Of a stretch of DNA of 64,000 nt, positions 8,554 to 33,651 are shown one piece after another (the stretch's first letter is position 1; each line of letters begins with the position of its first letter). The notes under the pieces were generated by a model. It had not been told where the DNA came from, did no database searches, and saw only the letters and a list, made by a program, of their open reading frames with translations. The translations under genes were made by a program, and so were the position numbers. Source of the DNA: a virus (Duplodnaviria > Caudoviricetes). The DNA lies in IMG/VR virus record IMGVR_UViG_3300029305_001452, positions 75,973 through 139,972 of that record. One strand, given 5' to 3'.

Positions 8554-9357
8554 TTGATGGAATATTATACAAGCTCATCTGAACAAATTCGACAAGATAC
8601 ATGTGATGAGGTAGAATATGTAGAAATTAAAAATCCATTTGGTTTTATTTATATTACAACTAATTTGATAAATGGTAAAAGATATATTGGACAAAGAAAG
8701 TTTTCTGATGGGTGGACAACATATCTTGGAAGTGGAAAGAGATTTAAAACGGCTCTGAAAAAATATGGTAGAAAAAATTTTGTTAGATTAATAGTTGATA
8801 TAGGCTATTCTCGTGAAGAACTAAATGATAAAGAAATTAGTATAATAAAATTTTTAAATGCCGTTGATAGCAGAAATTTTTATAATATATCAGAAGGCGG
8901 AGAGATAAAAGGCAAAAGTGGAAAAGATGCATACTGGTATAATAAAAAAATTCCACAAGAAAGCATAGAAAAGGCAAATTTAAAAAGATATAAACCTGTT
9001 TACCAGTTCGACTTAAATGGTAATTTTATTAAGCGTTATGAGTCCGTAACACATGCTGCAAAAGAAAATAATCTTAGCAAACAAGGAATAAGTAAGTCGT
9101 GTAATGATGATAGTAAAACATGCGGTGGTTATTTTTGGTCATACAGTGACAATATTGGCTTAAGAAAATATGATCCTACCAAAAATCATAAACCAGATGA
9201 AGTATATCAATATGATTATGATGGTAAGAAATTAATTAATATTTATATATCTGCAAAAGAGGCAAGCGAAAAAACTGGAATAGCTACATACAATATATAT
9301 GCTTGTCTTTCTGGTAAGAGAAAACATGCTGGAAATTTTACTTGGAAAAAGGAGTAA
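8554..9357 (+). CDS. Free-standing GIY-YIG homing endonuclease with two NUMOD1-like repeats
   Basis: GFIYITTNLINGKRYIG, YLGSG; two VYQ[FY]DxxG repeats. Confidence 0.9.
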   Translation: MMEYYTSSSEQIRQDTCDEVEYVEIKNPFGFIYITTNLINGKRYIGQRKFSDGWTTYLGSGKRFKTALKKYGRKNFVRLIVDIGYSREELNDKEISIIKFLNAVDSRNFYNISEGGEIKGKSGKDAYWYNKKIPQESIEKANLKRYKPVYQFDLNGNFIKRYESVTHAAKENNLSKQGISKSCNDDSKTCGGYFWSYSDNIGLRKYDPTKNHKPDEVYQYDYDGKKLINIYISAKEASEKTGIATYNIYACLSGKRKHAGNFTWKKE

Positions 9358-11489: not shown

Positions 11490-13922
11490 ATGACAGAAAA
11501 GATTACAATGATAGAACTCTTCTCTGGTGTTGGAGCACAGGAAAGAGCACTACGGCAACTTAACATTCCATATGAGGTGACTCATACTTGTGATCTAGAC
11601 AAAGATGCGGTTCTTAGTTATGCTGCAATGAGAACCGACTTTGAAAATGAATTTAACTCTTATAATTTCCCATCCGTAGAAGATATGATTTCAGAATTGC
11701 AGAGTAAAAATGTTGGCTATGACTTTATGAAGGGCAAGCACACCATTACAACTCGTACATCTGTTAACAAGTTGAAGCAATATTATCTTGCGGATAAATT
11801 ATCCAAAAATCTTGGAGATATCGGAAAGATTGAAAGACTTCCTTATGCTGATATGGTTACTTACTCTTTCCCTTGTACTGATTTATCCGTGGCTGGCAAG
11901 GGTGAGGGTATGCAGAACAAGTGTGAATCTTGTGGTCATTCTTGGCCTATTGACTTTAGTAGTTCCGAAGAGGTACTAGTCTGCCCTAATTGTGGTGAAA
12001 ATGTGTCTTCTAGCACTCGTTCTGGTTTGCTAGGGCAGGTTCAGAGACTTCTATCTGTTGCTTATGAGAATAACGAATTGCCTAAGTATCTTCTTCTTGA
12101 GAATGTAAAGAATCTTGTTGGCAAGAAATTTGTTAATCAGTTCGATGCTTGGGTTAAGTGGCTTGACGGCATTGGTTATAATACATATTATCAAGTACTT
12201 AATGCGAAGCACTACGGTATCCCTCAGAATCGTGAGCGTATCTTTGCACTTTCTATTCGTAAGGACATTGATAATGGTGAATTTAAGTTCCCAAATAAAA
12301 TTCCTCTTAATATTCGCTTAAAGAATATTCTGGAAAAGAATGTTGATGAGAAGTATTATTTACCAGATGAGCGTATTGATAAAATTCTAAACTCAACATT
12401 TATTCAAGAAAAGAAACGTATTCAAATGAAGGATGTGTGCGATACACTTCTTGCACGAGACTGGAAAGATCCTAAGTGCGTACAGGTGGAAGGCGATACA
12501 AGTCCTATTAGGTTAGGTAATATTTATGATGAGAAGTTTGGCACCGGTTATGCTGGAAATGTATGGGATAAAAATGGCATATCTCCAACTCTTCAGACGG
12601 CACAAGGCGGCAATAGACAGCCGTTGGTTATTGACGAAGTCAAAGTAGAGCCGTTCATCGTAGCTTCTCGTGGTAGAAATCCAGACAATCCTTCTGATAG
12701 AACTACTGGAGCGCCCACAGAGCAAAGACTTGAGCCGAATTTTAGTGGTTGCACAAATACTCTTACATCCGTGCAAAAGGATAATTATGTTGCAGAACCT
12801 CAGGTGCTTCGTGCTGAAAGAACTGAATACGGTAAGGCCATTCGTAAGCAATATGAATCTGGAGAAGTCTATGAAAAGATTAGCAATATGAGAGAATTGA
12901 CTCCTCGGACAGATGGTGTTAGTAATACTATTACCACCTTATTAAAGGACAACTATGTTTATGAGCCTCAAGTTAAGAATGTAGGTAATATTTATCCGTC
13001 TAATGGTCAGAATGGTAATATTTATGATATTGACGGTATTAGCCCAACTATCAATGCGGGTACTGGTGTTAAGGGTTGTGGCATTGGTAGCAATAATGCT
13101 CCTAAGGTCATCGTGCCAGAATTATTAAATGGCAATTGTGCATATGAGCCACAGATGGTTATTGGAAGTATGCAAGCAAATTCATATATTGGTGATTGTA
13201 GCATTAGTCCATCTCTTACAGCTGCCATGGGAATGGGTGGCGGTCAGATACCTATGGTTGGTTATGTTACAAAAGATCCTATTATATACGATGATTATAA
13301 TAGTCGTATTAGTTCTGACCAGGATGCTATCAACACACTTACTACCAACTGCGGTGCATCTGCTGAAAGAAATGGCGTTAAGATTATTGAACCGATTGTT
13401 TGTGAAGAGCGTAGGGATGAGGGTATCCGTTTCTTTAAGGACGATTGTGTTGGCACACTAAGAACTATTGATGCATGTGGTGACAAAAGAGTTCTTGAGC
13501 CTGAGCCTCAACTAGAGTTTGTTGGTGGATTGGGTGAAAAGGATTGGGTTAAAGACGGTAAAATGTTAAGTCGTAACTACCCTCAAGGCTCCAGTGTTTA
13601 TTCCTCTGATGGAATCGCCTCTGCGTTAACTGCACAAGGTGTTGGTGGAGCTGGTGGTTATAGTGGATTATATACGGTAGAGGAAGAGCCTAAAAATATT
13701 AAGTGGCGCATTCGTAAGCTTACCCCTAAGGAGTGTTGGCGTTTAATGGGCTTTACAGATGAAGACCACGATAGAGCGTCAAAATATGTAAGTGCCTCTT
13801 CTCTATATAAGCAAGCTGGTAATTCTATTTGTACTTGTTGCCTAATTGCAATTTTTAATGCGCTATTCCTACACGATTACAGTACTTCTTATTGTGATAA
13901 GCTAGTAGATTATAATTCTTAA
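11490..13922 (+). CDS. DNA (cytosine-5)-methyltransferase with expanded, repeated variable region
   Basis: ELFSGVG, FPCTDLS, LLENVKNL, PQNRER, RKLTPKECWRLMGF, QAGNSI. Confidence 0.92.
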   Translation: MTEKITMIELFSGVGAQERALRQLNIPYEVTHTCDLDKDAVLSYAAMRTDFENEFNSYNFPSVEDMISELQSKNVGYDFMKGKHTITTRTSVNKLKQYYLADKLSKNLGDIGKIERLPYADMVTYSFPCTDLSVAGKGEGMQNKCESCGHSWPIDFSSSEEVLVCPNCGENVSSSTRSGLLGQVQRLLSVAYENNELPKYLLLENVKNLVGKKFVNQFDAWVKWLDGIGYNTYYQVLNAKHYGIPQNRERIFALSIRKDIDNGEFKFPNKIPLNIRLKNILEKNVDEKYYLPDERIDKILNSTFIQEKKRIQMKDVCDTLLARDWKDPKCVQVEGDTSPIRLGNIYDEKFGTGYAGNVWDKNGISPTLQTAQGGNRQPLVIDEVKVEPFIVASRGRNPDNPSDRTTGAPTEQRLEPNFSGCTNTLTSVQKDNYVAEPQVLRAERTEYGKAIRKQYESGEVYEKISNMRELTPRTDGVSNTITTLLKDNYVYEPQVKNVGNIYPSNGQNGNIYDIDGISPTINAGTGVKGCGIGSNNAPKVIVPELLNGNCAYEPQMVIGSMQANSYIGDCSISPSLTAAMGMGGGQIPMVGYVTKDPIIYDDYNSRISSDQDAINTLTTNCGASAERNGVKIIEPIVCEERRDEGIRFFKDDCVGTLRTIDACGDKRVLEPEPQLEFVGGLGEKDWVKDGKMLSRNYPQGSSVYSSDGIASALTAQGVGGAGGYSGLYTVEEEPKNIKWRIRKLTPKECWRLMGFTDEDHDRASKYVSASSLYKQAGNSICTCCLIAIFNALFLHDYSTSYCDKLVDYNS

Positions 13923-13946
13923 CAATACAAAATTAATGGAGGACTA

Positions 13947-14807
13947 ATGAAAATTTTAAGTTTATGTGACGGGATATCTTGTTGTCATATTGCACTTGAT
14001 AGAGCGGGCATTACTGTAAAAGAATACTATGCAGCAGAAATCAAAGAAATTGGAATTAGAGTAACAAAAGATAATTATCCTGACACTATCCATATTGGTG
14101 ATGTGAATAAAATTAGTTATAGAGACGGTGTGTTATACACAGAGAATGGCAATTATAATGTTGGTCATATTGACCTTGTCGCTTTCGGAAGTCCATGTCA
14201 GAGCTTCTCACAGGCTATGAAGACTCATATGAGAGTTGGTCTAGAAGATAAAACGCGGTCTGGTCTGTTCCTAGAGTGCTACAGAATTCTCAAGGAAGTC
14301 AATCCTACATATTTCTTAATGGAAAATGTGGCAAGCATGAAGCAAGAAGATAAAGATTTTATTTCTAAGCTTATGGGTGTTGAGCCTATTCGTATTAATA
14401 GTAAGCTTGTTGGACCAGCGCTTAGAGATAGATTGTATTGGACAAACATTCCTAATGTAACTCAGCCCAAGGATAAGAAAATTACTCTACAAAGTATTCT
14501 TACTAGTGGTTATACAGACAGAGAAAAGGCGCGAGCGTTGCTTGTTAGTGATAGCCGTCCGTTGACAGATAAGAAAAGAATGATGCACAGATACCGTGAT
14601 ACTGGCTTTACAACCATTATTTGGGAAGAAAAGGGTAACGACGATTCTATTCGGTATATGAATCAGATAGAGCTTGAGAGATGTCAAAATGTCCCTGAAG
14701 GCTATACAAAATGTCTAACAAGAAATGAGGCGGCAAATGTTCTTGGTGATGGTTGGAGTGTCGATGTAATCGCGCATATTTTTAAAAATTTAACAACACA
14801 AAATTAA
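13947..14807 (+). CDS. DNA (cytosine-5)-methyltransferase
   Basis: LSLCDG, GSPCQSFS, FLMENV, RxRLYW, LGDGW. Confidence 0.88.
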   Translation: MKILSLCDGISCCHIALDRAGITVKEYYAAEIKEIGIRVTKDNYPDTIHIGDVNKISYRDGVLYTENGNYNVGHIDLVAFGSPCQSFSQAMKTHMRVGLEDKTRSGLFLECYRILKEVNPTYFLMENVASMKQEDKDFISKLMGVEPIRINSKLVGPALRDRLYWTNIPNVTQPKDKKITLQSILTSGYTDREKARALLVSDSRPLTDKKRMMHRYRDTGFTTIIWEEKGNDDSIRYMNQIELERCQNVPEGYTKCLTRNEAANVLGDGWSVDVIAHIFKNLTTQN

Positions 14808-14822
14808 TGAGGAGAAATAACA

Positions 14823-15851
14823 ATGAAGTATTTTAGTAATGAAATCGTGTTTAGAGGACATCCCGATAAGGTTTGTGATCAGATTAGTGCGGCAATTCTA
14901 GCAGAATGTGTAAAGCAAGATCGAAACACTAGAGCAGGTATTGAAGTAGCTGGTGGCAAGGGTAAAATCTTTGTCACAGGAGAAGTAACCACTAAGGCTA
15001 AGTTTAATACAGAAGAGATTGTAAAGAAAGTGCTTCGTGATGTTGGATACAGTGACAACTATGAGGTCATTGATAATATTGGCAAGCAGTCCGCAGATAT
15101 TGCTCTTGGTGTTGATGTTGGTGGTGCCGGTGACCAGGGCATGATGTTCGGCTATGCTTGTAATGATACTCCTCAGATGCTACCTACAGCAATGGTAATT
15201 CTACAGGAGTTTGCAAAGTTCTATGATAAGCTATGCCATAAGGATAAGAGATTCCTACCCGATGGTAAAGCACAGATTACTGGTCTTTATGATAACAGTT
15301 TTAAGCTTGTAAAGATTAAGGATTTCACAATTTCTTATCAGAACACTGAAGAAGATAGAGATTATACCGACGCCATCCTAGAGGGCGCTGCAAGATTTAT
15401 TTGTATTTCTAATGGTGTTACTGATATTGATAGATTCCTTATCAACCCTACTGGCAAGTTCCTAATTGGTGGCTTTGATGGCGATGCTGGTCTAACTGGC
15501 AGAAAGATTGTAGTTGATGCCTATCAGTCTTTCGCCAATGTTGGTGGTGGTTGTCAGAATGGCAAGGATGCCACTAAGGTTGATTTTTCTGCCTCTCATA
15601 TGGCACGTAAGATTGCGTGTGAATATCTAAAGAAGCACGATTTAAAGTGGTGTGAGGTGCAGCTATCTTATGCAATTGGTGTAGCAGAGCCTCTTGCAAT
15701 TTATATTGATAGTAATATTGGTAACATCGTTCCTGATGAATCTCTGTATCCTAGATGTACACCTAAGAATATTATTGACGAACTTCATCTACTAGATATT
15801 GATTATGAAAAGTTGGCAATGTTTGGTCATTATGTGGAAGCAGAGGTGTAA
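14823..15851 (+). CDS. metK: S-adenosylmethionine synthetase
   Basis: GHPDKVCDQIS, GAGDQGMMFGYA, DAGLTGRKIVVD. Confidence 0.95.
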   Translation: MKYFSNEIVFRGHPDKVCDQISAAILAECVKQDRNTRAGIEVAGGKGKIFVTGEVTTKAKFNTEEIVKKVLRDVGYSDNYEVIDNIGKQSADIALGVDVGGAGDQGMMFGYACNDTPQMLPTAMVILQEFAKFYDKLCHKDKRFLPDGKAQITGLYDNSFKLVKIKDFTISYQNTEEDRDYTDAILEGAARFICISNGVTDIDRFLINPTGKFLIGGFDGDAGLTGRKIVVDAYQSFANVGGGCQNGKDATKVDFSASHMARKIACEYLKKHDLKWCEVQLSYAIGVAEPLAIYIDSNIGNIVPDESLYPRCTPKNIIDELHLLDIDYEKLAMFGHYVEAEV

Positions 15852-15853
15852 TT

Positions 15854-16519
15854 ATGCCAAAGATGCTTGATTTATTTTGTGGAACTAAATCTATGGCAAA
15901 AGCTTTTGCAAGAGCTGGGTGGGAAACATATACAGTAGACTGGAGTGAAGAATTTGAACCAACATTGTGTTGTGATGTCAACACTCTAACAGTTGATAAG
16001 ATTATTGAGCTTTGTGGCGGAGTCCCCGACTTCGTCCACATGAGCCCAGATTGTACATCTTATTCTGTTGCCGCAATTTCTCGTCATAGAAAACAAAACA
16101 AAGAAACTGGTGAGCTTGAAGCTATTTCTAATTATGCTAAATTTTGCGACAGTACCAATTCGTATATCATTGATTTAGTTGTCAATCAGTTAAAACCCAC
16201 TTTCTATACAATTGAAAATCCTCGTTCTGCAATGAGGAAAATGTTCTTTGTTAGAGAGCTTCCTAGATATACAACTACATATTGCCAATGGGGAGACACA
16301 CGAATGAAGCCTACTGACATCTGGACGAATCTTCCTAATCCTAATTTTCCTTGTTGTAAAAATGGTGATCCTTGCCACGAGAAAGCTCCTCGTGGTAGTA
16401 GAACTGGCACACAAGGAATTAAGGGGGCAAAGGATAGATCTCGTATCCCAGATAAGTTGTGTGAATATATTGTGAAGCTATGTGAAAGTGGACTAAGCAA
16501 CATGGACGGTGATAATTGA
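15854..16519 (+). CDS. Small C5 DNA methyltransferase-like protein
   Basis: LDLFCG, SPDC, IENP, YCQWG, KPTDIW. Confidence 0.8.
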   Translation: MPKMLDLFCGTKSMAKAFARAGWETYTVDWSEEFEPTLCCDVNTLTVDKIIELCGGVPDFVHMSPDCTSYSVAAISRHRKQNKETGELEAISNYAKFCDSTNSYIIDLVVNQLKPTFYTIENPRSAMRKMFFVRELPRYTTTYCQWGDTRMKPTDIWTNLPNPNFPCCKNGDPCHEKAPRGSRTGTQGIKGAKDRSRIPDKLCEYIVKLCESGLSNMDGDN

Positions 16520-18273: not shown

Positions 18274-18477
18274 GTGGTGTATATTATGATTAAAGTGGAA
18301 AATGAGTGCGTAGATTGTGGATTGCCGTGCCTATATTCATCTTGTCCATATTGGGCTGTTAAAAGATTTTATTGCGACGAATGTCATGACGAGGCAAAAC
18401 TTTATTGGTATGATAATGAACAGTTGTGCTTAGATTGTATTGAGAAAAGATTAGAAAAGGTTGAGTGTGATGACTGA
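18274..18477 (+). CDS. Cys-rich small protein
   Basis: CVDC..PC....C, CDEC, CLDC. Confidence 0.7.
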   Translation: MVYIMIKVENECVDCGLPCLYSSCPYWAVKRFYCDECHDEAKLYWYDNEQLCLDCIEKRLEKVECDD

Positions 18478-19050: not shown

Positions 19051-19632
19051 ATGATTCAAATTAGAAGCAGTGTATTTGAAACCAACTCTAGTTCTATGCA
19101 TAGTATTGCAATCCCTAGAAATTGCAAGGCGGTTAGTAGTGTGCATTTTAGCATTGGTGAGTTTGGTTGGGAGTGGGATGAAGTTGATGCTGCGAATTAT
19201 TTGTATACTGCAATTTGCATAAATTCTGAAAGTGAATCCGAAGTAAAAGAAAAGATTGAAAAGTTGGAAAATATTTTGAATAATCATGGTATTTCCTGTA
19301 GCTTTGGACGAATTGAAAATCATGTTTGGCATGATGATTATGACAATACAGATTATTTCTGTCTTGATAATGGATATATTGACCATGGTTATGAGTTGAA
19401 AGAATTTGTTGACGAGCTTTTCAATGATGAAGATAAGCTTGTAAGATTTGTTAGTGGTGGTCTTGTGTTTACCGGCAATGACAATTCCGATATGGAAGAT
19501 TGGTGTTATATCAGAAGAAATCATGAATATTTAGATAAATATGATTGGCGGACTAAGACAAGTACTCAGTTTAAGAATCCGTATTATATGAGTAATCACG
19601 CAGATTATGAATGGTATGACAAGGGTAACTAA
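19051..19632 (+). CDS. FETNSSS-leader protein 1
   Basis: N-terminus MIQIRSSVFETNSSSMHSI. Confidence 0.8.
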   Translation: MIQIRSSVFETNSSSMHSIAIPRNCKAVSSVHFSIGEFGWEWDEVDAANYLYTAICINSESESEVKEKIEKLENILNNHGISCSFGRIENHVWHDDYDNTDYFCLDNGYIDHGYELKEFVDELFNDEDKLVRFVSGGLVFTGNDNSDMEDWCYIRRNHEYLDKYDWRTKTSTQFKNPYYMSNHADYEWYDKGN

Positions 19633-19644
19633 GGAGGCAAGATT

Positions 19645-20022
19645 ATGAAGCAGATTAGACGTGGAGTTTTTGAAACAAATAGCAGCAGCACACATTCTCT
19701 TACAATGATGATGAAGAATGATTATGAGAGATGGCATAATGAAAAGCTTTATCTGTATGAAGGTGGTTATGGTTGGGAATTTAGTAAGCCTATTAAAAAT
19801 TCTCTTTATACAAAGGAAGAAGTTCTTAAATTTGCAAAGAATAATAGATATTGGCATGATTATGTAGAAGATGAATATAAAGAATATGAAATGCTGAGAG
19901 ATATGGGTTTCATTGCTTGGGATGACGAGGGTAGTGAGTACCTTGAATGTTTCTATAAAGAGTTTACAACTCCTTCTGGTGAAACGATTGTTGCCTTTGG
20001 CGAGTATGGTTATGATGGTTAA
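19645..20022 (+). CDS. FETNSSS-leader protein 2
   Basis: N-terminus MKQIRRGVFETNSSSTHSL. Confidence 0.8.
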   Translation: MKQIRRGVFETNSSSTHSLTMMMKNDYERWHNEKLYLYEGGYGWEFSKPIKNSLYTKEEVLKFAKNNRYWHDYVEDEYKEYEMLRDMGFIAWDDEGSEYLECFYKEFTTPSGETIVAFGEYGYDG

Positions 20023-20031
20023 GGAGATTAT

Positions 20032-20550
20032 ATGATTCAAATTCGTAATAATGTATTTGAGACAAATAGTAGTAGTACTCATTCACTTTCTATGACAAAC
20101 GAACATATTAGCGATACAGAATTGAATGACCTGGCATTTGAAAACACCTACATTATCAAGCCATTTAAATCTGATGAGGTTGACGACATTATGGAATTAC
20201 ATAGTGTTAAGGACAAACTAAGATATTTTCTTACATTATACTATCAATCTTGGGACGATACACCAGGTTCGTGCAAGAACGAATTTATGAAGCTGCTTAA
20301 AAAGATTTTTCCTAATACAATATTTAGTTTAGAGATTGGACACCAATATATTTTTGAAGATGGAGAATATTTTTTTGACAGCTACTTTGACAAAGCAGAA
20401 TGCACTAAGCTAATGGACGAACATATACTCAAAAAGTTTATACTCTATGGAACAATTAATTTTGGAGATAGAGATAGAGAAGAATATTATGACAAAGTAA
20501 ACCATATTCGATACAATAAAGACCTGTGGAGTGTTGATTGGTCTGGCTGA
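20032..20550 (+). CDS. FETNSSS-leader protein 3
   Basis: N-terminus MIQIRNNVFETNSSSTHSL. Confidence 0.8.
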   Translation: MIQIRNNVFETNSSSTHSLSMTNEHISDTELNDLAFENTYIIKPFKSDEVDDIMELHSVKDKLRYFLTLYYQSWDDTPGSCKNEFMKLLKKIFPNTIFSLEIGHQYIFEDGEYFFDSYFDKAECTKLMDEHILKKFILYGTINFGDRDREEYYDKVNHIRYNKDLWSVDWSG

Positions 20551-20568
20551 TTAAAAAGGAGATTTAAT

Positions 20569-21459
20569 ATGAATATTCTTGGTGAATATAAAAACGGTAA
20601 CTATAATGTCCGTATTTATGAAGATGGCACAAAAGTAAGATTTAACGATCTTGACAACTTTAATCCTACATTTGCAGAAAACTGTGATGTTAAAATTACC
20701 GACAAGTGTGATGGTGGATGTCCTTTCTGTTACGAGGGATGTACTCCCAATGGCAGACACGGTGATATTTTGAATCCTAAGTTCCTAGGCACTCTGCATC
20801 CTTATACAGAGCTTGCTATTAATGGCAATGACTTGTCTCATCCTGACTTGGGTGCTTTTATGATTAAAATGAAGGAGAAGAGGGTCATTTTGAATATGAC
20901 TGTTAACCAGATTCATTTTGAAAAGCATTTTGATTATATTAGGAGTTTGGTGCAGGATGGTTACATTTATGGTCTTGGTGTGTCGCTGAAAGAGCCTACT
21001 GATGAGTTTATTAAAATGATTAAGCAGTTTCCCAATGCAGTGATTCATGTGATTAACGGCGTTGTATCCGTACATGACTTGGCTCGTCTTGCAAGTCACA
21101 ATCTTAAGGTTCTTATTCTTGGTTACAAGAACCTTCGCCGTGGAGAAAGTTACTATGAGCAGAATGATGAGATTGTGACCGCTTTGCAGGAAGACTTGGA
21201 CGCATTTTTGTTCCCAGAAATCATTAACAATGGTTGGTTTAAGGTTGTAAGCTTTGACAATCTTGCAATCAAGCAGCTTCATGTGCAGAAGCATCTGCCA
21301 GAAGAGCAGTGGGAAGAATTCTATATGGGTGATGATGGTAATTATACTTTCTATATTGATATGGTAGATGGAACTTTTGGTAAGAATTCTTTAGCTACCA
21401 AAAGATATCCTATTATGGATAATATTGACGATATGTTTAACAAAATTAAAGGAGAATGA
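20569..21459 (+). CDS. Radical SAM enzyme
   Basis: CDGGCPFC (CxxxCxxC). Confidence 0.88.
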   Translation: MNILGEYKNGNYNVRIYEDGTKVRFNDLDNFNPTFAENCDVKITDKCDGGCPFCYEGCTPNGRHGDILNPKFLGTLHPYTELAINGNDLSHPDLGAFMIKMKEKRVILNMTVNQIHFEKHFDYIRSLVQDGYIYGLGVSLKEPTDEFIKMIKQFPNAVIHVINGVVSVHDLARLASHNLKVLILGYKNLRRGESYYEQNDEIVTALQEDLDAFLFPEIINNGWFKVVSFDNLAIKQLHVQKHLPEEQWEEFYMGDDGNYTFYIDMVDGTFGKNSLATKRYPIMDNIDDMFNKIKGE

Positions 21460-21461
21460 CA

Positions 21462-21626
21462 ATGAGTCAGCAGGATTATTTTGAACAGAGCTTGTGTCGT
21501 AAGTGCTTTATTAAGCATTGCAAACCCACGAAGAAAGAAATTAAGAAGATGGTTATGAGTGAAGAACAATATGAATGTGATTGCTGTCACAAGACAGACT
21601 ATGTTGTAGAGTATTTGGAGGATTAA
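21462..21626 (+). CDS. Small zinc-binding protein (54 aa)
   Basis: Read by hand; CRKC...CDCC; GGAG RBS. Confidence 0.6.
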   Translation: MSQQDYFEQSLCRKCFIKHCKPTKKEIKKMVMSEEQYECDCCHKTDYVVEYLED

Positions 21627-23561: not shown

Positions 23562-24032
23562 TTGATTATGGGTACTAACTTTTATCTTATGACTAGAAAT
23601 AAATCTATGGCACAAAAATATGCGCCTTATTCTTATAGTCTTACAGACGAGCCGTATTTTGGATATGAAATCCATATTGCAAAAACCAGTTGTGGGTGGT
23701 TGCCTCTTTTCCAAGGTCATAAAGACGGTATTAATTCCGTCCGTGAATACAAGGCTGCATATGAAACTGGTGAATTTGATATCGTAGACGAATACGGCAA
23801 TTCTTATAATTGGGAAGAATTCACAGAAAGAGTGTTAAAATTTAATGGTGGGGTTCGTGGAGTGGAGCCGCTTAAAAAGATTGAAGTAGACACAAGTTCT
23901 CAGTTTTATGACCATAGACTACCAGAATACATGCCGATTAGTCATTTTGATTATAAATATGATTATTATTATGTTAATGATTATTTTGCAGATGAAGATG
24001 GTTATGAATTTGACAAGAGGGAGTTTTCATAA
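23562..24032 (+). CDS. Hypothetical phage protein (MGTN(F/Y)Y type)
   Basis: ORF after a promoter at ~23509-23536. Confidence 0.7.
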   Translation: MIMGTNFYLMTRNKSMAQKYAPYSYSLTDEPYFGYEIHIAKTSCGWLPLFQGHKDGINSVREYKAAYETGEFDIVDEYGNSYNWEEFTERVLKFNGGVRGVEPLKKIEVDTSSQFYDHRLPEYMPISHFDYKYDYYYVNDYFADEDGYEFDKREFS

Positions 24033-25156
24033 TGTACAAGATTGAATTGAGAGATTTCGTTTTATCTCATGATAATTGGGAAGAATTACTTACAACCGAA
24101 CCTTATTATCTAAAGATTTCTCGTGATCGTGGATATATTATGTTTAAGTATAACCAGTTGTTTTCTGATTTTAACATTCCTCTAGTACGTGAGGCACGTG
24201 GTATTATTTTTAGAGAACATGACTGGAAGTGTGTTTGTGATCCGTTTCGAAAATTCGGCAATTGGGGAGAGTCATATTGCCCAGAAATTAACTGGGAAAC
24301 TGCATCTGTTCAGCAAAAAGTTGATGGATCTCTTATTAAATTTTGGTGTGATGATGGCTGGCATATTTCTACCAATGGATCTATTGATGCGTTTAAGGCA
24401 GAACTGAATAATGTAAAATATCAAAATTTTGGACAGCTTGTAATTGATGCAATCCGCAGAGTATTTCCAAATTATCACGATTTCTTTAATATGCTTAATC
24501 CTTACTGTACTTATATGTTTGAACTTGTATCTCCATATAATAGAGTGGTTATTCCTTATGAGAGAGCAAAGTTGTATTTTCTAGGTGTAAGAAATCTTGA
24601 TACTGGAGTAGAATACATGCCAGAGGAATACGAAATTTCTCAATATTTTCAAATCCCTAAGCGTTATGCGTTATCTACTCTAGAAGATGTACAAAAAGCA
24701 GCAAACGCACTCCCGTGGGATCAAGAAGGATATGTTGTATGCGATTCTAATTTTAATCGAGTTAAGATTAAAAGTCCTGCTTATGTAAATGCTCATTATG
24801 TTAGAAACAATAATATTATTACTGTAGAACGACTTGTGCAAATCGTACTTAGTGGGGAGAAAAAAGAATTTTTAATCTATGCTTCAGAGTACACTAATGA
24901 ATTACTAGACATAGAAAGTGCTATGCGTAAGATTGCTAGTAATTCCGTTGAACAAATGAAAATTCTATTTGGGGCATCATATGAATTTGCAAATCGTAAA
25001 GAATATGCTGATGTAATAGCTAAGTATCCAACGTATATGAAAGAGTTTCTTTTTAATTGTTTTGACGATAGAATTTTTTGGGACTATGCAAGAAGTTGGA
25101 ACATAGATAGATGGGTTAAAGCAATTAATGAATTTAAGGCTGGTGATAATAAATGA
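24032..25156 (+). CDS. RNA ligase, T4 Rnl1-like
   Basis: EARG, KF.N, QKVDGSLI (KxDG), FEL, EGYVV, RVKIK. Confidence 0.88.
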   Translation: MYKIELRDFVLSHDNWEELLTTEPYYLKISRDRGYIMFKYNQLFSDFNIPLVREARGIIFREHDWKCVCDPFRKFGNWGESYCPEINWETASVQQKVDGSLIKFWCDDGWHISTNGSIDAFKAELNNVKYQNFGQLVIDAIRRVFPNYHDFFNMLNPYCTYMFELVSPYNRVVIPYERAKLYFLGVRNLDTGVEYMPEEYEISQYFQIPKRYALSTLEDVQKAANALPWDQEGYVVCDSNFNRVKIKSPAYVNAHYVRNNNIITVERLVQIVLSGEKKEFLIYASEYTNELLDIESAMRKIASNSVEQMKILFGASYEFANRKEYADVIAKYPTYMKEFLFNCFDDRIFWDYARSWNIDRWVKAINEFKAGDNK

Positions 25157-25962
25157 ACTTTCATTCAGATGAATGGATTATGGATCGTGTTAGAGAGCAT
25201 TATAATGAAGCTCTTGAGCACTTCCCGGAAGATAGAATTGTAGGTATTTTTTACCAGGGGTCTGGCAACTACGGCCTAGACTACGAAGGTTCTGACGTAG
25301 ATACTAAGCTAATTGTTACACCTACATTTAAAGATATTGCAATGAACCATAAAGCTGTAAGCACAACTCATATCAGAGAGAATGAGGAACATATCGATTT
25401 TAAGGATATTAGACTTTATATCCAGACATTCAGAAAGCAGAACTTGAATTTCTTGGAAATTCTTTTTACTAAATATGCAATCATCAATTCTATGTATAAA
25501 GCTGAATGGGATAGGCTAGTGGAAGCTCGTGAAGCAATTGCACATTACTCTCCTGTACAAGCCATTAAGTCTATGAAGGGTATTGCTATGGAAAAGTACC
25601 ATGCAATGGAACATCATTACCCCGCACGAATGGCATGGATTGAAAAGTTTTCTTACGACCCTAAACAACTGCATCATCTGATACGAGTGCGAGAGTATAT
25701 TGAAAGATATATTGACGGAGAATCTTATGAAGATTGCTTAATTTCTACACAGCCAGGATATCTTCAGAGAGTAAAGGTTGGTTTTCACAATTTAGACGAT
25801 GCTCGTATTATTGCTAATAATTCTATTGAGCGTATTAATAGTATGTGCAACGAATATTTGGAAACTTGTTCTAAAGAAGTTGATAAAGATGTTGATGCTC
25901 TACTGGACGATGTACAGTACAACATTATGAAAATTGCTATTCAGAAAGAGATTGGTGATTAA
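25153..25962 (+). CDS. Pol-beta-superfamily nucleotidyltransferase
   Basis: QGSGNYGL....SDVD; NFLEILF. Confidence 0.8.
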   Translation: MNFHSDEWIMDRVREHYNEALEHFPEDRIVGIFYQGSGNYGLDYEGSDVDTKLIVTPTFKDIAMNHKAVSTTHIRENEEHIDFKDIRLYIQTFRKQNLNFLEILFTKYAIINSMYKAEWDRLVEAREAIAHYSPVQAIKSMKGIAMEKYHAMEHHYPARMAWIEKFSYDPKQLHHLIRVREYIERYIDGESYEDCLISTQPGYLQRVKVGFHNLDDARIIANNSIERINSMCNEYLETCSKEVDKDVDALLDDVQYNIMKIAIQKEIGD

Positions 25963-26847
25963 ATGTTCGGATACAGACCTAGTTTAATTTTATTAGTTGG
26001 CATTCCTGGTAGTGGAAAGACAACCTATGCAGAAAAATACCTTGAAGTATGTAGTAATACAATTCATTTATCTTCAGATAAGATTCGTGCAGAGCTTTGG
26101 GGAAGTGAGGCAACTCAGGGTGACAACAACGAAGTTTTCTCTTTGATGCAGTCTAGGGCTATTGAAGCACTAAATAACGGACTGAGTGTCTTGTATGACG
26201 CTACTAATATCACTCGTAAGGATAGATCTTACATTATTGCACTTTGTCCTAAGTTTGTTAAGATTGAATGTCATATTATATGGGCTCCAATTGAAACATG
26301 TATTGAGAGAGATGCCGCAAGAAAGCGCACTGTTGGTAAGGAAGTTATTGATAGGATGCTAAAGAGATTTCAAGCACCTTATTATGATGAAGGTATTCAC
26401 GAGATTAAGATAATTTGGAACACACCAGATGATTTTAATCAACAGACATATGTAAACAATCTTATTAATACTTCTGATATTCCACACGACAACCCTCATC
26501 ATACTCTAAATATTAAAGAACATTGCAATGAAGCATACAATTATGCCGTTAATAATCATTTTCCGTCTTATCTACTTATGGCAGCAAAATATCACGACAT
26601 TGGCAAGTCGTATGTGAAAGCATTTGTTGATAGTAAAGGAAATCCGTCAGAACATGCACACTATTATCAACACCAGTGTATTTCTGCATATATGTATTAC
26701 GGAATTGATAAACATAACTTTTTTATTGCTTGGTTAATTTCCACACACATGGAACATTTTTTTAACAGCAAGTATTATAACAAGCTCCCTACATATTTAA
26801 AGAAACAAATTGATTTGCTTCACGAAGCAGATTTGAATGCACATTAA
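25963..26847 (+). CDS. Polynucleotide kinase (P-loop) fused to an HD domain
   Basis: GIPGSGKTT, DATN; HH...H...HDIGK. Confidence 0.85.
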   Translation: MFGYRPSLILLVGIPGSGKTTYAEKYLEVCSNTIHLSSDKIRAELWGSEATQGDNNEVFSLMQSRAIEALNNGLSVLYDATNITRKDRSYIIALCPKFVKIECHIIWAPIETCIERDAARKRTVGKEVIDRMLKRFQAPYYDEGIHEIKIIWNTPDDFNQQTYVNNLINTSDIPHDNPHHTLNIKEHCNEAYNYAVNNHFPSYLLMAAKYHDIGKSYVKAFVDSKGNPSEHAHYYQHQCISAYMYYGIDKHNFFIAWLISTHMEHFFNSKYYNKLPTYLKKQIDLLHEADLNAH

Positions 26848-26858
26848 GGAGAATAAAT

Positions 26859-27683
26859 ATGAGTAATAATAAAGATTCACTAGGCGACCGTATGAAGCAG
26901 TACGAATATGTCACTAGAAACTATCTAACTAGAAAGCTTCCGGTGATTGTGCGTTTAGACGGAAAGGCCTTTCATAGTTTCACAAGAGGTTTAAAGAAAC
27001 CCTTCGATGAAATCTTCGTCAAGTCTATGCAAGACACTATGAAGTACCTCTGTGAGAACATACAAGGCTGTGTACTAGGATATACTCAGTCGGATGAGAT
27101 TACACTAGTACTAATCGATTATCAGAGCAGAGAGGCTTCTGCTTGGTTTGACAACAATATTCAGAAGATGGTAAGTGTGTCTGCGAGCATGGCAACACTA
27201 ACATTTAATAAAGCGTTTAAAACAAATTCCGAAGCAACTTTGCGTCGTATTAATGGTGTTTTTACTTGTACCGATGAAGAATTTAAGTATGCAAATACAC
27301 TTGAGAAATGTCTATCAAAAGGCGCAATGTTTGATTCTCGTGTCTTTACTGTCCCTAAAGAAGAAGTTATCAATACAATCATTTGGCGTCAGCAAGATGC
27401 AACTCGCAACTCAATCCAGTCAGTTGGACAAGCTAACTTCTCTCATAATCAGTTACACGGCAAGAATTGCAGTAATATCCAGGATATGCTAATGCTTGAG
27501 AAGAATATTAACTGGAATGATTATCCTACACATCTAAAGCGTGGTAGCTGCTGCATTAAGAAGCCTTTCGTTATAAACGAAGGAACAGAACAAGAAGCAA
27601 CTCGCAACAAGTGGGTGATTGATACCGAGATTCCTATTTTTACTCAAGATAAGGATTATGTAAATAAATTAATTTTTATTTAA
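26859..27683 (+). CDS. tRNA-His guanylyltransferase (Thg1)-like 3'-5' polymerase
   Basis: RMKQYE, RLDGKAFH, QSDEI, FDSR, WRQQD. Confidence 0.92.
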   Translation: MSNNKDSLGDRMKQYEYVTRNYLTRKLPVIVRLDGKAFHSFTRGLKKPFDEIFVKSMQDTMKYLCENIQGCVLGYTQSDEITLVLIDYQSREASAWFDNNIQKMVSVSASMATLTFNKAFKTNSEATLRRINGVFTCTDEEFKYANTLEKCLSKGAMFDSRVFTVPKEEVINTIIWRQQDATRNSIQSVGQANFSHNQLHGKNCSNIQDMLMLEKNINWNDYPTHLKRGSCCIKKPFVINEGTEQEATRNKWVIDTEIPIFTQDKDYVNKLIFI

Positions 27684-27758: not shown

Positions 27759-28271
27759 ATGAAGACGCTAATTGTAATTGACATGCAGAATGATTTTATC
27801 GATGGTGCGCTTGGTACACCTGAGGCACAGGAAATTGTTACTAATGTAAAGAAGAAGATTGAGGAATATGATGCTCGTGAAGATGCGATTGTGTTTACAC
27901 GAGATACCCACTTTGAAAATTATCTTGAAACAAACGAGGGAAAGAATCTTCCCGTTAAGCACTGCATTATGGGTACACATGGCTGGCAGATTGCAGATGG
28001 TCTAGAGGTGCCTTGTGGTAGATATATTAATAAGCCTACTTTTGGATGGGTTGGTTGGAATACATTTGGATTTGAAGATGAAGATGAAATTGAAATTGTT
28101 GGTCTATGTACTGACATTTGTGTGGTTTCTAACGCTCTTATTCTAAAGGCAAGGTTCCCTGAAATTAAGATTACCGTAGACGCATCTTGCTGTGCTGGTG
28201 TTACTCCTGAAAGTCACAAGGCTGCACTACAGACTATGAAAATGTGCCAAATTAATGTAATTGGAGAATAA
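27759..28271 (+). CDS. pncA: Nicotinamidase (isochorismatase family)
   Basis: IDMQNDF, DTH, HC, K, GLCTDICV. Confidence 0.85.
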   Translation: MKTLIVIDMQNDFIDGALGTPEAQEIVTNVKKKIEEYDAREDAIVFTRDTHFENYLETNEGKNLPVKHCIMGTHGWQIADGLEVPCGRYINKPTFGWVGWNTFGFEDEDEIEIVGLCTDICVVSNALILKARFPEIKITVDASCCAGVTPESHKAALQTMKMCQINVIGE

Positions 28272-28274
28272 ATT

Positions 28275-29066
28275 ATGATTAAACTAAATGGTAAAATCAT
28301 TGAACAAAATAATTTTCCAGATGGAACATTACTAATGAAGTGCAATCCTAACAAATATGCAGTAAGCACAATTACATGGCAGTATGAATCTGACGCAGAA
28401 TTGTTTGCACTTTATAGTTTAAAGAGACATCTCAATTGTACTGTGCCTGGACGGAATAGTTATTTGTATATGCCGTATATTCCAAATGCAAGACAGGACA
28501 GGGTAAAAACGAATGAAGATATTTTCACTCTAAAATATTTTGCAGAGATTATTAATTCGTTGAATTTTCAAAAAATCTATGTTATTGATCCCCATTCTTC
28601 TGTAAGTGAAGCATTAATTAATAACATTGAAGTAGTGTCTCCAAAGGATTTTATTGAACAGACTTTAAATAATATCAACGTAGATGATATTTTGATGTTC
28701 TATCCGGATGAGGGCGCAATGAAACGTTATTCTGGGTTAGTGTCTAAGCCTTATGCGTTTGGTATTAAAAAGCGCAACTGGGAGACAGGCAAAATTGAGG
28801 GTCTGGATGTTACAGGTTCTGTAGATAAAATTGTTGGTAAGGATATTTTAATCGTTGACGACATCTGCAGTAGAGGTGGAACATTCTATCATAGCGCAAA
28901 GAAGCTAAAGGAACTTGGCGCTAATAAAATCTATCTATATGTTACACATTGTGAGAATACAATCCTTGAAGGCGAACTACTTACAAGCGGATTAATTGAA
29001 AAGGTATACACAACAAATAGTATTTTTACTAAAGAACATGAAAAAATTGAGGTGTTCGAACTATGA
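28275..29066 (+). CDS. Ribose-phosphate pyrophosphokinase-like protein (Prs/Adps-like)
   Basis: FPDG, ARQDR, DPHS, PDEGA, IVDDICSRGGT. Confidence 0.88.
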   Translation: MIKLNGKIIEQNNFPDGTLLMKCNPNKYAVSTITWQYESDAELFALYSLKRHLNCTVPGRNSYLYMPYIPNARQDRVKTNEDIFTLKYFAEIINSLNFQKIYVIDPHSSVSEALINNIEVVSPKDFIEQTLNNINVDDILMFYPDEGAMKRYSGLVSKPYAFGIKKRNWETGKIEGLDVTGSVDKIVGKDILIVDDICSRGGTFYHSAKKLKELGANKIYLYVTHCENTILEGELLTSGLIEKVYTTNSIFTKEHEKIEVFEL

Positions 29067-29641
29067 AACCTTATGATGTAGGGTTGATTTGTGGAAGATT
29101 TCAAACATTCCATAAGGGTCACGAAAAGTTAATTGAAACTGGTTTAATGTTGTGCGACAGACTTTTAATTTTAATTGGAAGCGCACAAGAATGTGGGACT
29201 GAGCGTAATCCATTAAACATTAACACCAGAACAAAAATGCTTAGGATGATTTATGGTGACAATCCAAACATTATGATTTATGGTTTACCTGATTTATCAA
29301 ACGAAAATGATATTCGTCCAGAATGGGGTAGATATTTACTTGATAATGCAGACCGATATATTTTCAAAAATCCAGATGTAATGATTTATGGAAATGATGA
29401 AAGTAGAAGCGCTTGGTTTGATAAAAAAGATTTGAAATACACAACAGAACTGATTGTTAATAGGAGCGAACTTCCTATTTCTGCTACTATGGTGCGTCAA
29501 TATATGGTTGAAGATAATCGTAAAGCTTGGATGGAATGTGTTAATCCTAAGTTACATAAAATGTATGATGAAATCCGTCGTGAATTAATGACGGTAGATT
29601 ATTATCAAAAACACTTTTTAAACAATAAAAATAATGATTGA
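29063..29641 (+). CDS. NMN/NaMN adenylyltransferase (NadM-like)
   Basis: GRFQTFHKGH, IGSAQ, RNP, ISATMVR. Confidence 0.88.
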   Translation: MKPYDVGLICGRFQTFHKGHEKLIETGLMLCDRLLILIGSAQECGTERNPLNINTRTKMLRMIYGDNPNIMIYGLPDLSNENDIRPEWGRYLLDNADRYIFKNPDVMIYGNDESRSAWFDKKDLKYTTELIVNRSELPISATMVRQYMVEDNRKAWMECVNPKLHKMYDEIRRELMTVDYYQKHFLNNKNND

Positions 29642-29653
29642 GGTATTTGAACT

Positions 29654-31123
29654 ATGACAACTGATATTATGATGATGCTTATGTCTGATACATATAAGCA
29701 TACTCATCCTCGTATGTATCCTCAGAACTTAACAAAGTTGGTCTCTTATCTAACTCCTCGTAAGAACATGTCTAAAGCATTTCCTAATATGGTATTCTTT
29801 GGCCTGCAAGCTTTTATCCTCGACTACCTTATGGATGGTTTCGATGAACAATTTTTTGATAAGCCACTACACGTAGTAGAAGATAAGTATAAACATTACA
29901 TGGGCATTCAAATTGGTGTAGAAAATACTGAGTGGCCTAAGATTAAGGCTCTACATGAACTTGGTTATTTGCCCCTAGAAATTCGTGCTCTGCCTGAGGG
30001 TACTGTAGTTAACATGGGGATTCCTGTAGTTGAGATGACTAACACTCATCCAGACTTTGCGTGGGTTGTGCAGTGGGTAGAGTGTATTCTGCAGGCTGAA
30101 CTGTGGGCTCCTTGTGCTTATGCAACTATTGGTAAAGCTTATCATGATCTTGCAGAGAAGTACTACAGTGAGACTACGGATGGTGCCGATCCTTTTATGG
30201 CAATGGCCGACTTCGGTATGCGTGGTATGTCTTGTATGGAAGATTCTATTAGAGCGTCTGCTTCTTGGCTTCTAAGTTTCGATAAGACAAGCACCATTCC
30301 AGCACTACCATATATTGATGATTATTATAATGCCAATTGTTCTGTAAATAGTATTGGTCGTGGTGCAGTATCCACAGAGCATTCCGTTATGGGTGCCAAC
30401 TTCGCTATTGACGGTGATGAAATTACATTTGTTAAGCGTTTGCTTACTGAATTGTATCCAAATACATCTTTCTCTATGGTGTCTGATACATACGACTATT
30501 GGAATATGGTTAATAACATCATTCCTGCTTGTAAGGATGAAATTATGGCTCATAATGGCAAGTTGCTAATTAGACCAGATTCCGGCGATATGGTTGATAT
30601 TTCTATTCGTACTATTGATAAGTTGTGGGAAGTATTTGGTGGCACCGTTAATGCTAGGGGCTATAAGGAACTCGACCCTCACATCGGTCTAATCTATGGT
30701 GATGGCTGCACATTAAATCGTGTACATGAGATTTATGAAATTCTGAAGCAGCGTGGCTTTGCTGCTAATAATGTAGTGTTTGGTGTTGGTGCTTTCTGTT
30801 TCCACGCTCTGTTTGACGACGATAATAATATGACCGTTATTACTAGAGATACTTTTGGTATGGCCATGAAGGCTACTTTTGGTGAATTTGGCGACAAGAA
30901 GCTATTTATTTACAAAGATCCCAAAACTGACGATGGCAATCTAAAGAAGAGTCATAAGGGATGTTGTATGGTATCTCAGAAAGATGATGGAAGTTTCGTA
31001 TGCGTTGATGAATTCGACCACTGGATTGAAGATGGGTTTACTGAACTGGAAACAGTATTTAAGGACGGCGCAATCACTAAATTCTACAACTTTACGGACA
31101 TTCGGGAGAGATTGTATGGTTAA
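29654..31123 (+). CDS. Nicotinamide/nicotinate phosphoribosyltransferase (NadV/NAMPT family)
   Basis: DTYK..H, DFGMRG, STEHSV, DTYD, IRPDSG, YGDG, KKSHKG. Confidence 0.92.
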   Translation: MTTDIMMMLMSDTYKHTHPRMYPQNLTKLVSYLTPRKNMSKAFPNMVFFGLQAFILDYLMDGFDEQFFDKPLHVVEDKYKHYMGIQIGVENTEWPKIKALHELGYLPLEIRALPEGTVVNMGIPVVEMTNTHPDFAWVVQWVECILQAELWAPCAYATIGKAYHDLAEKYYSETTDGADPFMAMADFGMRGMSCMEDSIRASASWLLSFDKTSTIPALPYIDDYYNANCSVNSIGRGAVSTEHSVMGANFAIDGDEITFVKRLLTELYPNTSFSMVSDTYDYWNMVNNIIPACKDEIMAHNGKLLIRPDSGDMVDISIRTIDKLWEVFGGTVNARGYKELDPHIGLIYGDGCTLNRVHEIYEILKQRGFAANNVVFGVGAFCFHALFDDDNNMTVITRDTFGMAMKATFGEFGDKKLFIYKDPKTDDGNLKKSHKGCCMVSQKDDGSFVCVDEFDHWIEDGFTELETVFKDGAITKFYNFTDIRERLYG

Positions 31124-31577
31124 AATTATTGACGGTAATTTATTTGACTCTAAAGCAAATATCATCTGCCATCAATGCAATTGCCAAGGTGTTATGGGTT
31201 CTGGAGTCGCAGCAGAGGTTAAAAGAAGATATCCTTATGTATTCCACAGATATAGAAAAGATTATCTTGATGGTAAACTAAAGCTAGGATATGTTTGTTT
31301 TGCATCTGCAAATGTAGACCAGGTAATTGCAAATATGTGTGGTCAAAATAACTTTGGTTACGATGGCTCTGTTTATACAAACTATGACAAGTTACAAGAA
31401 TGTCTTAATAATGTTAAAGACTATGCTATGTTTTCATATGATGTAAAACCAACCATTGCATTTCCTTGGCTAATGTCATGTTGTCGTGGTGGCGGAGATT
31501 GGAATATAGTTTATAAGATGATCGAAGATACATTTGAAGATTTTGATGTAGAAATTTGGAGGTTGCAAAATGACTAA
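31116..31577 (+). CDS. Macro domain (ADP-ribose) protein
   Basis: GNLF...HQCNCQGVMGSGVA...GGGDW. Confidence 0.88.
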   Translation: MVKIIDGNLFDSKANIICHQCNCQGVMGSGVAAEVKRRYPYVFHRYRKDYLDGKLKLGYVCFASANVDQVIANMCGQNNFGYDGSVYTNYDKLQECLNNVKDYAMFSYDVKPTIAFPWLMSCCRGGGDWNIVYKMIEDTFEDFDVEIWRLQND

Positions 31578-33533: not shown

Positions 33534-33592
33534 TTAAAAAAATATACGGGCCATGGCAAAAACCGTGGCCCATTTTTGTATATATTGCACCA

Positions 33593-33621
33593 TTGACAAT
33601 GTTAATTTAATATGCTATATT
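33593..33621 (+). promoter_or_regulatory. SigmaA promoter of the ligase gene
   Basis: TTGACA-N17-TATATT with TG. Confidence 0.75.
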
Positions 33622-33651
33622 AACAATACAAAATTAATAGGAGGTGTTGTA

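Follow-up and report, generated by a model that had tools for sequence, protein, structure and literature searches.

The tagged genes and the radical SAM gene form a compact block

We analysed the last 64 kb of the 139,972-bp IMG/VR virus record IMGVR_UViG_3300029305_001452, which is 87% complete; this stretch of 64,000 nucleotides is hereafter called the window. Our subject is a set of three adjacent open reading frames (ORFs), here named pA, pB and pC, together with the gene that follows them. The three ORFs encode proteins of 193, 125 and 172 aa that start with the same segment, M-[IK]-Q-I-R-x-x-V-F-E-T-N-S-S-S-[MT]-H-S, which we call the tag. The fourth gene encodes a divergent radical S-adenosylmethionine (SAM) enzyme of 296 aa with a CxxxCxxC motif. 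All four lie on the + strand in a tightly packed run with intergenic gaps of 9–18 nt, and an AAGGAG Shine-Dalgarno sequence is found 6–9 nt before the ATG of each. The genes and the segments that encode the tag (residues 1–19) are as follows.

19051..19632, + strand: pA, long-type tagged protein, 193 aa; ORF with Shine-Dalgarno site
19645..20022, + strand: pB, short-type tagged protein, 125 aa; ORF with Shine-Dalgarno site
20032..20550, + strand: pC, third tagged paralog, 172 aa; ORF with Shine-Dalgarno site
20569..21459, + strand: divergent single-cluster radical SAM enzyme, 296 aa; C47-x3-C51-x2-C54; phrog_16999
19051..19107, 19645-19701 and 20032-20088, + strand: tag-coding segments of pA, pB and pC, respectively

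A preliminary description of this DNA had reported the three ORFs with their shared N-termini, the CxxxCxxC protein encoded next and a deaminase gene just upstream, and all of these are present as described. It had also held that the three proteins share nothing but a leader and that they have a common type of C-terminus, and had pointed to MetK and cysteine desulfurase genes nearby. The first two points did not stand, and the last two genes are no regular companions of the block, as detailed below.

Tagged proteins and enzyme form a two-family module across phages

To see how regularly the two kinds of gene accompany each other, we examined loci anchored on either of them. The enzyme was present at 77 of 80 pA-anchored IMG/VR loci, mostly immediately 3' of one to five tagged ORFs. 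Conversely, all 79 enzyme-anchored loci contained one to three tagged ORFs on the same strand, and 70 of these had exactly two, one long and one short. At more diverse loci from metagenome-assembled genomes (MAGs) and genomes, the enzyme lay within the fetched flanks in 55 of 70 cases. Many of the rest are truncated contigs, and of five exceptions with full flanks, four proved to have the enzyme in another part of the same record or genome bin. A pA relative is present in 24 of 50,697 deposited phage records (15 Lak megaphage and 9 Microcystis phage records), and a separate enzyme is encoded in exactly these 24. A DNA search against deposited phages returned no near relative.

We then took a census of the genes around the enzyme in 72 lineages that are less than 75% identical to each other. 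Only the tagged family accompanied the enzyme in every lineage (189 ORFs, 2.6 per locus), and the next commonest neighbour, a kinase-HD protein, occurred in 15 of the 72 lineages. No protease, transporter or exporter, RiPP (ribosomally synthesised and post-translationally modified peptide) recognition element (RRE) or PqqD-like domain was conserved in the module in this census. Tagged genes vary from one to nine copies, against a single enzyme. The largest expansion that we saw, nine tagged paralogs within 12.5 kb with the enzyme at the locus edge, is found on two rumen MAG contigs (L216 and L217).

In Salmonella phage Arash, both parts of the module are fused in one 476-aa protein, gp146c, annotated in its record as 'methyltransferase'. 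The pA profile matches the first 140 residues of gp146c, GYIDH and GGNDN included (hhalign probability 96.4, E-value 1.4e-9), and the enzyme profile matches the remainder (hhalign probability 99.4, E-value 1e-21). The tag is still at the free N-terminus of the fusion, with Ala in place of the tag Glu. True homologs of the module are also present in the Lak megaphages and in Microcystis phage Ma-LMM01, with no annotation beyond hypothetical protein or 'Fe-S oxidoreductase'. In Ma-LMM01, the tagged protein gp130 is of the typical long type: it has the tag, GEFG, YLYTG, GYMDH and TGNDN, and its C-terminus is KGN. The enzyme homolog gp128, annotated 'Fe-S oxidoreductase', shares 36% identity with the window enzyme. 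Unlike the window, Ma-LMM01 has a single tagged gene, and one unrelated ORF separates it from the enzyme gene, so that gp130 lies two genes from gp128.

Near-perfect co-occurrence in both directions and the Arash fusion bear out the earlier proposal that the tagged proteins and this radical SAM clade are a dedicated pair. That the tagged family is functionally coupled to a dedicated radical SAM enzyme is therefore well supported. Literature searches with motif strings or phage radical SAM terms found nothing relevant to the module.

The tagged proteins are diverged paralogs of one family

Profile comparisons showed that pA, pB and pC share more than a leader: they belong to one superfamily, as paralogs that have diverged. 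Between the family profiles of pA and pC, the alignment spans 134 columns (hhalign probability 99.6). When the first 24 residues of each were removed, 86 columns still aligned in the same register (probability 87.7, E-value 3.4e-6). Residues 1–56 of pB align with the pA family profile, including GWE and LYT, and residues 1–105 of pB match a long-type member (L063:6001-6507; BLASTP E-value 1e-13) with WDDEG paired to GYIDHG. As pB aligns to residue 105 with a long-type member, it is a shortened version of the same domain. In the 72-lineage set, all tagged ORFs fall in a single BLAST cluster at ≥50% coverage.

The three paralogs differ in abundance and in their motifs beyond the tag. We found 2437 homologs of pA, in 816 clusters at 50% identity and with matches along the whole length, and pA also matches phrog_28997 (1.9e-16). 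There are 1547 homologs of pB. Only 70 homologs of pC were found, limited to part of this phage group, and a close relative of this phage (L004) lacks pC and has only pA, pB and the enzyme. Beyond the tag, pA carries GEFGWE, YLYTA, GYIDH and TGNDN and ends in KGN; pB carries GYGWE, LYT and WDDEG and ends in YDG; pC carries DKLRY, FPN, FEDGEY and FGDRD and ends in WSG. Across 180 tagged proteins (92–318 aa, median 167), conservation outside the tag is moderate at Y50 (74%), D111 (64%) and an Asp near 144–147 (57%). Of the 180 chains, 122 end in N, G or D; the background frequencies are 4% for G and 7% for N. A general Gly-type C-terminus, as had been described, does not emerge from these data: C-terminal Gly or Asn is subfamily-specific, with KGN in 48, YDG in 14 and GHD in 11 of the 180.

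The AlphaFold2 models of pA and pC have predicted local distance difference test (pLDDT) scores of 94 and 87, respectively. Neither model has a convincing structural neighbour in Foldseek PDB, VIA-align 2 (48,161 PDB chains), ESM Atlas or BFVD. A PDB sequence search with pA returned no match, and pA, pB and pC gave nothing above noise against Pfam and NCBIfam. A BilS flavodoxin match of pC (16 bits, cut-off 155) was rejected because neither pA nor pC gave a flavodoxin-like structural match. The preliminary description had considered that the proteins might be full-length paralogs of one known fold. They are indeed paralogs, but of a fold without a solved structural match, and it is well supported that the three genes are paralogs of one small α/β family with an apparently new fold.

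The tag is invariant and held at a fixed distance from the start

The family-wide form of the tag is M-x-x-[IV]-R-x-x-[VT]-F-E-T-N-S-S-S-x-H-[SA]. A search of all six frames of the window returned exactly three copies of the motif, and the whole 140-kb record likewise contains three, so its occurrence is not due to chance. The Ser run is encoded by TCT AGT TCT, AGC AGC AGC and AGT AGT AGT in the three copies, which uses both Ser codon boxes and shows that the conservation is at the protein level rather than the result of a recent DNA duplication.

In the 180 tagged proteins from the 72 lineages, R5, F9, N12, S13–15 and H17 are invariant; the Arg and Phe (positions −5 and −1 relative to the Glu) were outside the search pattern, while N, S-S-S and H were partly required by it. 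The Ser positions are never Thr, although the pattern permitted Thr. The tag Glu is at residue 10 in 119 and at residue 11 in 51 of the 180 proteins, and the tag thus keeps a fixed distance from Met1. This invariance holds across paralogs that are otherwise 25–40% identical or less, in which no other column exceeds 74%.

Residues 1–10 are the least confident part of the models (pLDDT 60 in pA and 39 in pC) and are predicted to form a loose tail. Residues 11–20 have pLDDT values of 84 (pA) and 81 (pC), and TNSSSxHS leads into strand β1 (residues 15–22). Because residues 1–10 are of low confidence in otherwise confident models, packing within the protein fails to explain the invariance of R5 and F9. 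With the tag frozen while the domain drifts, and with its first ten residues unpacked in the models, a partner shared by all paralogs fits better than an internal structural element. The invariant N-terminal segment very probably takes part in the coupling to the enzyme.

The enzyme is a divergent, single-cluster radical SAM protein

In an alignment of 35 diverse homologs, C47 and C54 are invariant and C51 is nearly so. There is no conserved Cys outside these three positions in this alignment, which identifies the protein as a single-cluster enzyme. An NGND/GGGNPLxHPD motif probably occupies the GGE position of the enzyme. In weak profile matches, the family motif ELAI-(N/G)G(N/G)(D/N)-L-x-HPD aligns with GGEP of 7tol and GGNP of 5tgs. 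An N-terminal segment, YKNGNY...DGTKIR, is also conserved (Y7, N9, G10, G20, T21, K22 and R24).

The 296-aa window protein itself scores 14.9 bits against Pfam Radical_SAM, below the cut-off of 29.5, and matches phrog_16999 (8e-38). Among the 35 family members, 26 match Radical_SAM (best 4e-12) and 10 match Fer4_12. A PDB sequence search with the window enzyme returned no match. The family profile gave only weak matches to PDB, the best of which are radical SAM enzymes: tetraether lipid synthase (7tol), QueE, SkfB and PqqE. Matches to NCBIfam models were below threshold: W_rSAM_matur (29/35), MoaA (21/35), NrdG2 (19/35) and HxsC (17/35). These weak, sub-threshold similarities would point mostly to maturase and activase models.

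Some homologs of the enzyme gene are interrupted at its best-conserved motifs. One homolog has an intein at the CxxxCxxC site (L015:3116-5557; Pfam Intein_splicing), after which the extein resumes as ...HN/CHENS. Another has a LAGLIDADG-type intein within the ELA/GGGNPL motif (L213:3593-5701). A gene broken near residues 51–61, its two parts about 1.36 kb from each other, occurs in the record that contains L034 (G002:C1:75010-77283). Two long enzyme ORFs were considered as possible fusions to a tagged domain and rejected. The extra length of the one in L213 is the intein, and the upstream extension of the one in L207 appears homing-endonuclease-like from its sequence motifs. Outside the window, the phage studied here has another radical SAM gene (G000:C1:44346-45239; L237:2847-3740), which encodes a canonical protein of 297 aa (Pfam Radical_SAM, 71 bits) and whose neighbourhood is unrelated and free of tagged genes.

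Genomic surroundings of the module

Upstream of the tagged genes lie, in addition to the dCMP/cytidine deaminase (Pfam 6e-14), a 3D-domain protein, a NifS-like Aminotran_5 protein (16516) and MetK (14823). In this phage, the module is set among nucleotide and RNA-repair genes: the dCMP deaminase, an HD protein, an RNA ligase, a kinase-HD protein and Thg1. Such surroundings are suggestive of nucleotide or RNA metabolism, yet they are not retained across lineages.

The MetK and cysteine desulfurase genes that had been pointed out nearby are both there; they are, however, not conserved neighbours. We rejected the NifS-like gene as a part of the module, as it is a neighbour in only 7 of the 72 lineages. 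MetK, which adjoins two C5 DNA methyltransferases, was rejected too. These two genes, encoding an 810-aa multi-domain C5 cytosine DNA methyltransferase and a 286-aa C5 methyltransferase, lie directly 5' of MetK in the region 11490-16519, and MetK is more simply explained as a source of SAM for DNA methylation. A 221-aa protein without a Pfam match comes after MetK. Both MetK and the NifS-like protein may still aid radical SAM chemistry in general.

Two small Cys-rich ORFs (18274-18477 and 21456-21626; 67 and 56 aa) with zinc-ribbon-like CxxC pairs flank the block from the deaminase to the enzyme, and both are retained in L004. The second was considered as a third component of the module and rejected, since only 4 of the 72 lineages have a comparable ORF after the enzyme.

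Further along, an RNA-repair-like block (24032-27683) encodes a 374-aa protein whose L004 ortholog has RNA_lig_T4_1, a 269-aa protein without a Pfam match, an AAA_33 kinase-HD fusion and a Thg1-family 3'-5' nucleotidyltransferase. Genes for nicotinamide adenine dinucleotide (NAD+) salvage and synthesis occupy 27759-32307 and 33553-35622: an isochorismatase/nicotinamidase, a protein like phosphoribosyl pyrophosphate (PRPP) synthetase, an NMNAT-like cytidylyltransferase, NAMPT and NAD synthase. They are followed by an NAD-dependent DNA ligase, and the block is reminiscent of the NAD-reconstitution pathways with which phages counter NAD-depleting defences. The region 8554-9357 encodes a homing endonuclease of the GIY-YIG type (SegE-like) that has NUMOD1 domains.

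A predicted complex of the enzyme and pA

Complex modelling, one of the checks proposed in the preliminary description, was carried out for the enzyme and pA, with a 4Fe-4S cluster and SAM included in the input and three controls alongside. The median score was 0.35, against 0.00 for the best of the three controls; at this pass mark, 58 of 80 solved complexes and 2 of 110 mismatched pairs passed, but the passes with scores of 0.60 or below comprise only 7 of those 80 solved complexes and both of the passing mismatches. The runs had at least 25% of contacts in agreement and a partner pLDDT of at least 70. The score thus exceeds the controls, but it is weak and no interface was returned, and the prediction only faintly suggests that the enzyme and pA might bind directly.

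How the enzyme may act on the tagged proteins

The module is best explained as a self-contained, phage-specific unit of two families, a single-[4Fe-4S] enzyme and one to nine paralogs of an apparently new fold, three of them in this phage. The N-terminal segment is the obvious coupling point of the pair. As to what the coupling does, we tentatively favour a dedicated maturase or activase that acts on the N-terminal tag of its one to nine client paralogs, a reading to which we give slightly less than an even chance. The loose tail (residues 1–10, with R5 and F9) would dock on the enzyme, which would use a 5'-deoxyadenosyl radical to alter a residue within TNSSSxH, at the start of β1. The modification might mature a site made by the tag and the semi-conserved acidic and His residues, D111/H112 and D144/N145 in pA and E109/D110 in pC. 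By analogy with the PFL (pyruvate formate-lyase) activase or sulfatase maturases, which serve protein clients, one maturase could serve several client paralogs.

We infer direct binding, the role of the tag as substrate and all chemical detail of this scheme against a background of observed paralogy, synteny, gene fusion, fixed N-terminal position and tag invariance, and of predicted flexibility of the tail. A tag that is invariant in paralogs otherwise diverged fits one shared reader enzyme, and we also count in favour of a maturase the variable copy number beside a single enzyme and the sub-threshold NCBIfam similarities of the enzyme family. From the preliminary description, the dedicated pair and the N-terminal coupling point are thereby supported, while its RiPP-style picture and the likeness to sulfatase maturases are not.

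Several observations weigh against a maturase. A covalent fusion of enzyme and partner, as in Arash, is more typical of subunits or domains than of an enzyme and its substrate, and the Arash tag has Ala for Glu. The usual pairing of a long and a short protein could mean a fixed heteromeric complex. The semi-conserved Y50, D111 and D144 would also fit a small enzyme with the tag as its catalytic loop. Lastly, the complex prediction is weak and returned no interface, and the enzyme has none of the auxiliary-cluster cysteines used by many protein- or peptide-modifying radical SAM enzymes.

Some of these points lead to a different reading, in which the tagged proteins are obligate partner subunits of a heteromeric radical SAM enzyme, with a specificity, scaffold or co-catalytic role. 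The tag would then be a docking element or part of a joint active site, the substrate a nucleotide, a nucleic acid or another small molecule, and different paralogs would confer different specificities. Both parts in one chain in Arash and the usual trio of long protein, short protein and enzyme agree with this, and the pairing lends some support to the alternative raised in the preliminary description, an assembly motif for a heteromeric complex. Partner subunits would also agree with the weakly predicted binding above controls, with the same caveats on its score, and with the nucleotide and RNA-repair genes of the surroundings, the kinase-HD protein being the next commonest neighbour. However, no neighbour is conserved besides the two families, and the gene context therefore points to no pathway. 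A copy number of one to nine is unusual for fixed subunits, and a docking element needs neither nine invariant positions nor a fixed distance from Met1. On balance we regard partner subunits as rather unlikely, though as the main rival of a maturase.

The small proteins could also be autonomous hydrolases or metal enzymes that work in the same pathway as the radical SAM enzyme and are not modified by it. TNSSSxH would then be a catalytic loop, for example part of a Ser/His/Asp or metal site with D111/H112 and D144/N145. This would agree with the conserved polar residues in both tag and domain and with the fairly confident modelling of residues 11–20 as the lead-in to β1. Yet the domain residues differ by subfamily (DH in pA versus ED in pC, TGNDN versus FGDRD), and the tail with the invariant R5 and F9 is unpacked in the models. 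Since the fusion and the lack of any other pathway gene argue for direct coupling, we consider independent enzymes improbable.

Internal proteins of phage T4 carry a 10-residue capsid-targeting sequence that is cleaved after [LI]-x-E. By analogy, the first ten residues of the tagged proteins might be a targeting or pro-sequence cut after Glu10, which would expose Thr11 or the Ser run. A Glu at residue 10 or 11, preceded by [VT]-F, is present in 170 of the 180 proteins, and the tail is predicted to be flexible. This would leave the link to the radical SAM enzyme unexplained, however, and the invariance runs past the putative cut site, where the Arash fusion has Ala for Glu. The genes also sit in a + strand block of enzyme genes, away from the large − strand genes (43.9–64 kb) presumed to be structural. 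We hold a propeptide to be very unlikely.

A classical RiPP system, with a leader on unrelated cores that is modified, cleaved and released as small peptides, would account for the combination of one radical SAM enzyme with several 'precursors' that have their N-terminal segment in common, but it is extremely unlikely: the 'cores' are homologous domains of 125–193 aa, confidently folded in the two that were modelled, the conserved part reaches into strand β1, and no protease, transporter or PqqD-like recognition domain is conserved.

Comparison with known radical SAM systems

Returning to the favoured maturase, we compared the module with the systems that it most resembles. Glycyl-radical activases (PflA/PFL, NrdG/NrdD and the spare-part protein GrcA/YfiD) likewise combine a small radical SAM enzyme, with its cluster motif near the N-terminus and no auxiliary clusters, and dedication to folded protein clients encoded adjacent to it. 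The weak matches of the enzyme family to NrdG models and Fer4_12 are in keeping with this. In contrast, the tagged clients have neither the RVxG[FWY] glycine loop, absent from three family alignments, nor a ten-stranded barrel. The conserved element here is N-terminal and Ser-rich, and the C-terminal Gly or Asn, which is conserved within subfamilies only, sits at the extreme end of the protein. The window enzyme matches no activase model above cut-off. We rejected its identification as NrdG, as there is no NrdD in the 87%-complete record and the enzyme tracks the tagged proteins instead.

Anaerobic sulfatase-maturating enzymes (anSMEs) and their sulfatases, to which the system had been likened, also consist of a radical SAM enzyme and a short invariant Ser/Cys motif near the N-terminus of a folded enzyme, with one maturase for many paralogous clients. 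The window enzyme lacks the SPASM cysteines, has no SPASM or twitch domain and has no conserved cysteine beyond CxxxCxxC. The tag, F-E-T-N-S-S-S-x-H, has no Pro or Arg after the Ser run, unlike (C/S)xPxR and (C/S)-x-(P/A)-x-R. Finally, the tagged proteins match neither the alkaline-phosphatase/sulfatase fold nor any other solved fold.

RiPP maturases (PqqE, SkfB, sactisynthases and HxsB/C of the His-Xaa-Ser system) resemble the module in having one enzyme and several genes with a conserved N-terminal recognition segment, and the enzyme has weak profile matches to PqqE, SkfB and HxsC. Here, however, the substrates would be folded homologous domains instead of short peptides, and there is no RRE, protease, exporter, SPASM or twitch domain. 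The proposed RiPP-style leader on unrelated cores is not supported, as the cores are homologous folded domains. As families, anSME/SPASM enzymes, glycyl-radical pairs and RiPP clusters are excluded; the system may nevertheless work like the first two.

Implications

Neither family has a Pfam or NCBIfam model of its own, a solved structure or, as far as our searches reached, any literature. The module is nonetheless common, as reflected in the 816 clusters of the long-type protein alone and in more than 500 IMG/VR loci that carry the enzyme. The hosts of these phages are very different, as the module is found in gut MAG-associated phages, Prevotella Lak megaphages, Microcystis cyanophages and a Salmonella phage. 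A nine-residue signature at a fixed N-terminal distance, a dedicated enzyme and the invasion of the enzyme motifs by inteins together indicate an important, chemically specific function.

A more far-reaching claim, which we put forward as doubtful, is that a new post-translational modification or protein-derived cofactor is placed in the T-N-S-S-S-x-H of a new-fold enzyme family whose paralogs, one to nine per genome, have diversified for different targets. As part of the same claim, such radical-SAM-activated enzymes might form a phage-specific class spread over gut phages, Lak megaphages and cyanophages. Two phages in culture, Ma-LMM01 (gp128/gp130) and Salmonella phage Arash (with the fusion gp146c), provide experimental handles on the module. 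Should the enzyme modify the tag, both the protein-maturation chemistry and the enzyme class would be new; should the tagged proteins be subunits, the module would represent a new radical SAM enzyme architecture.

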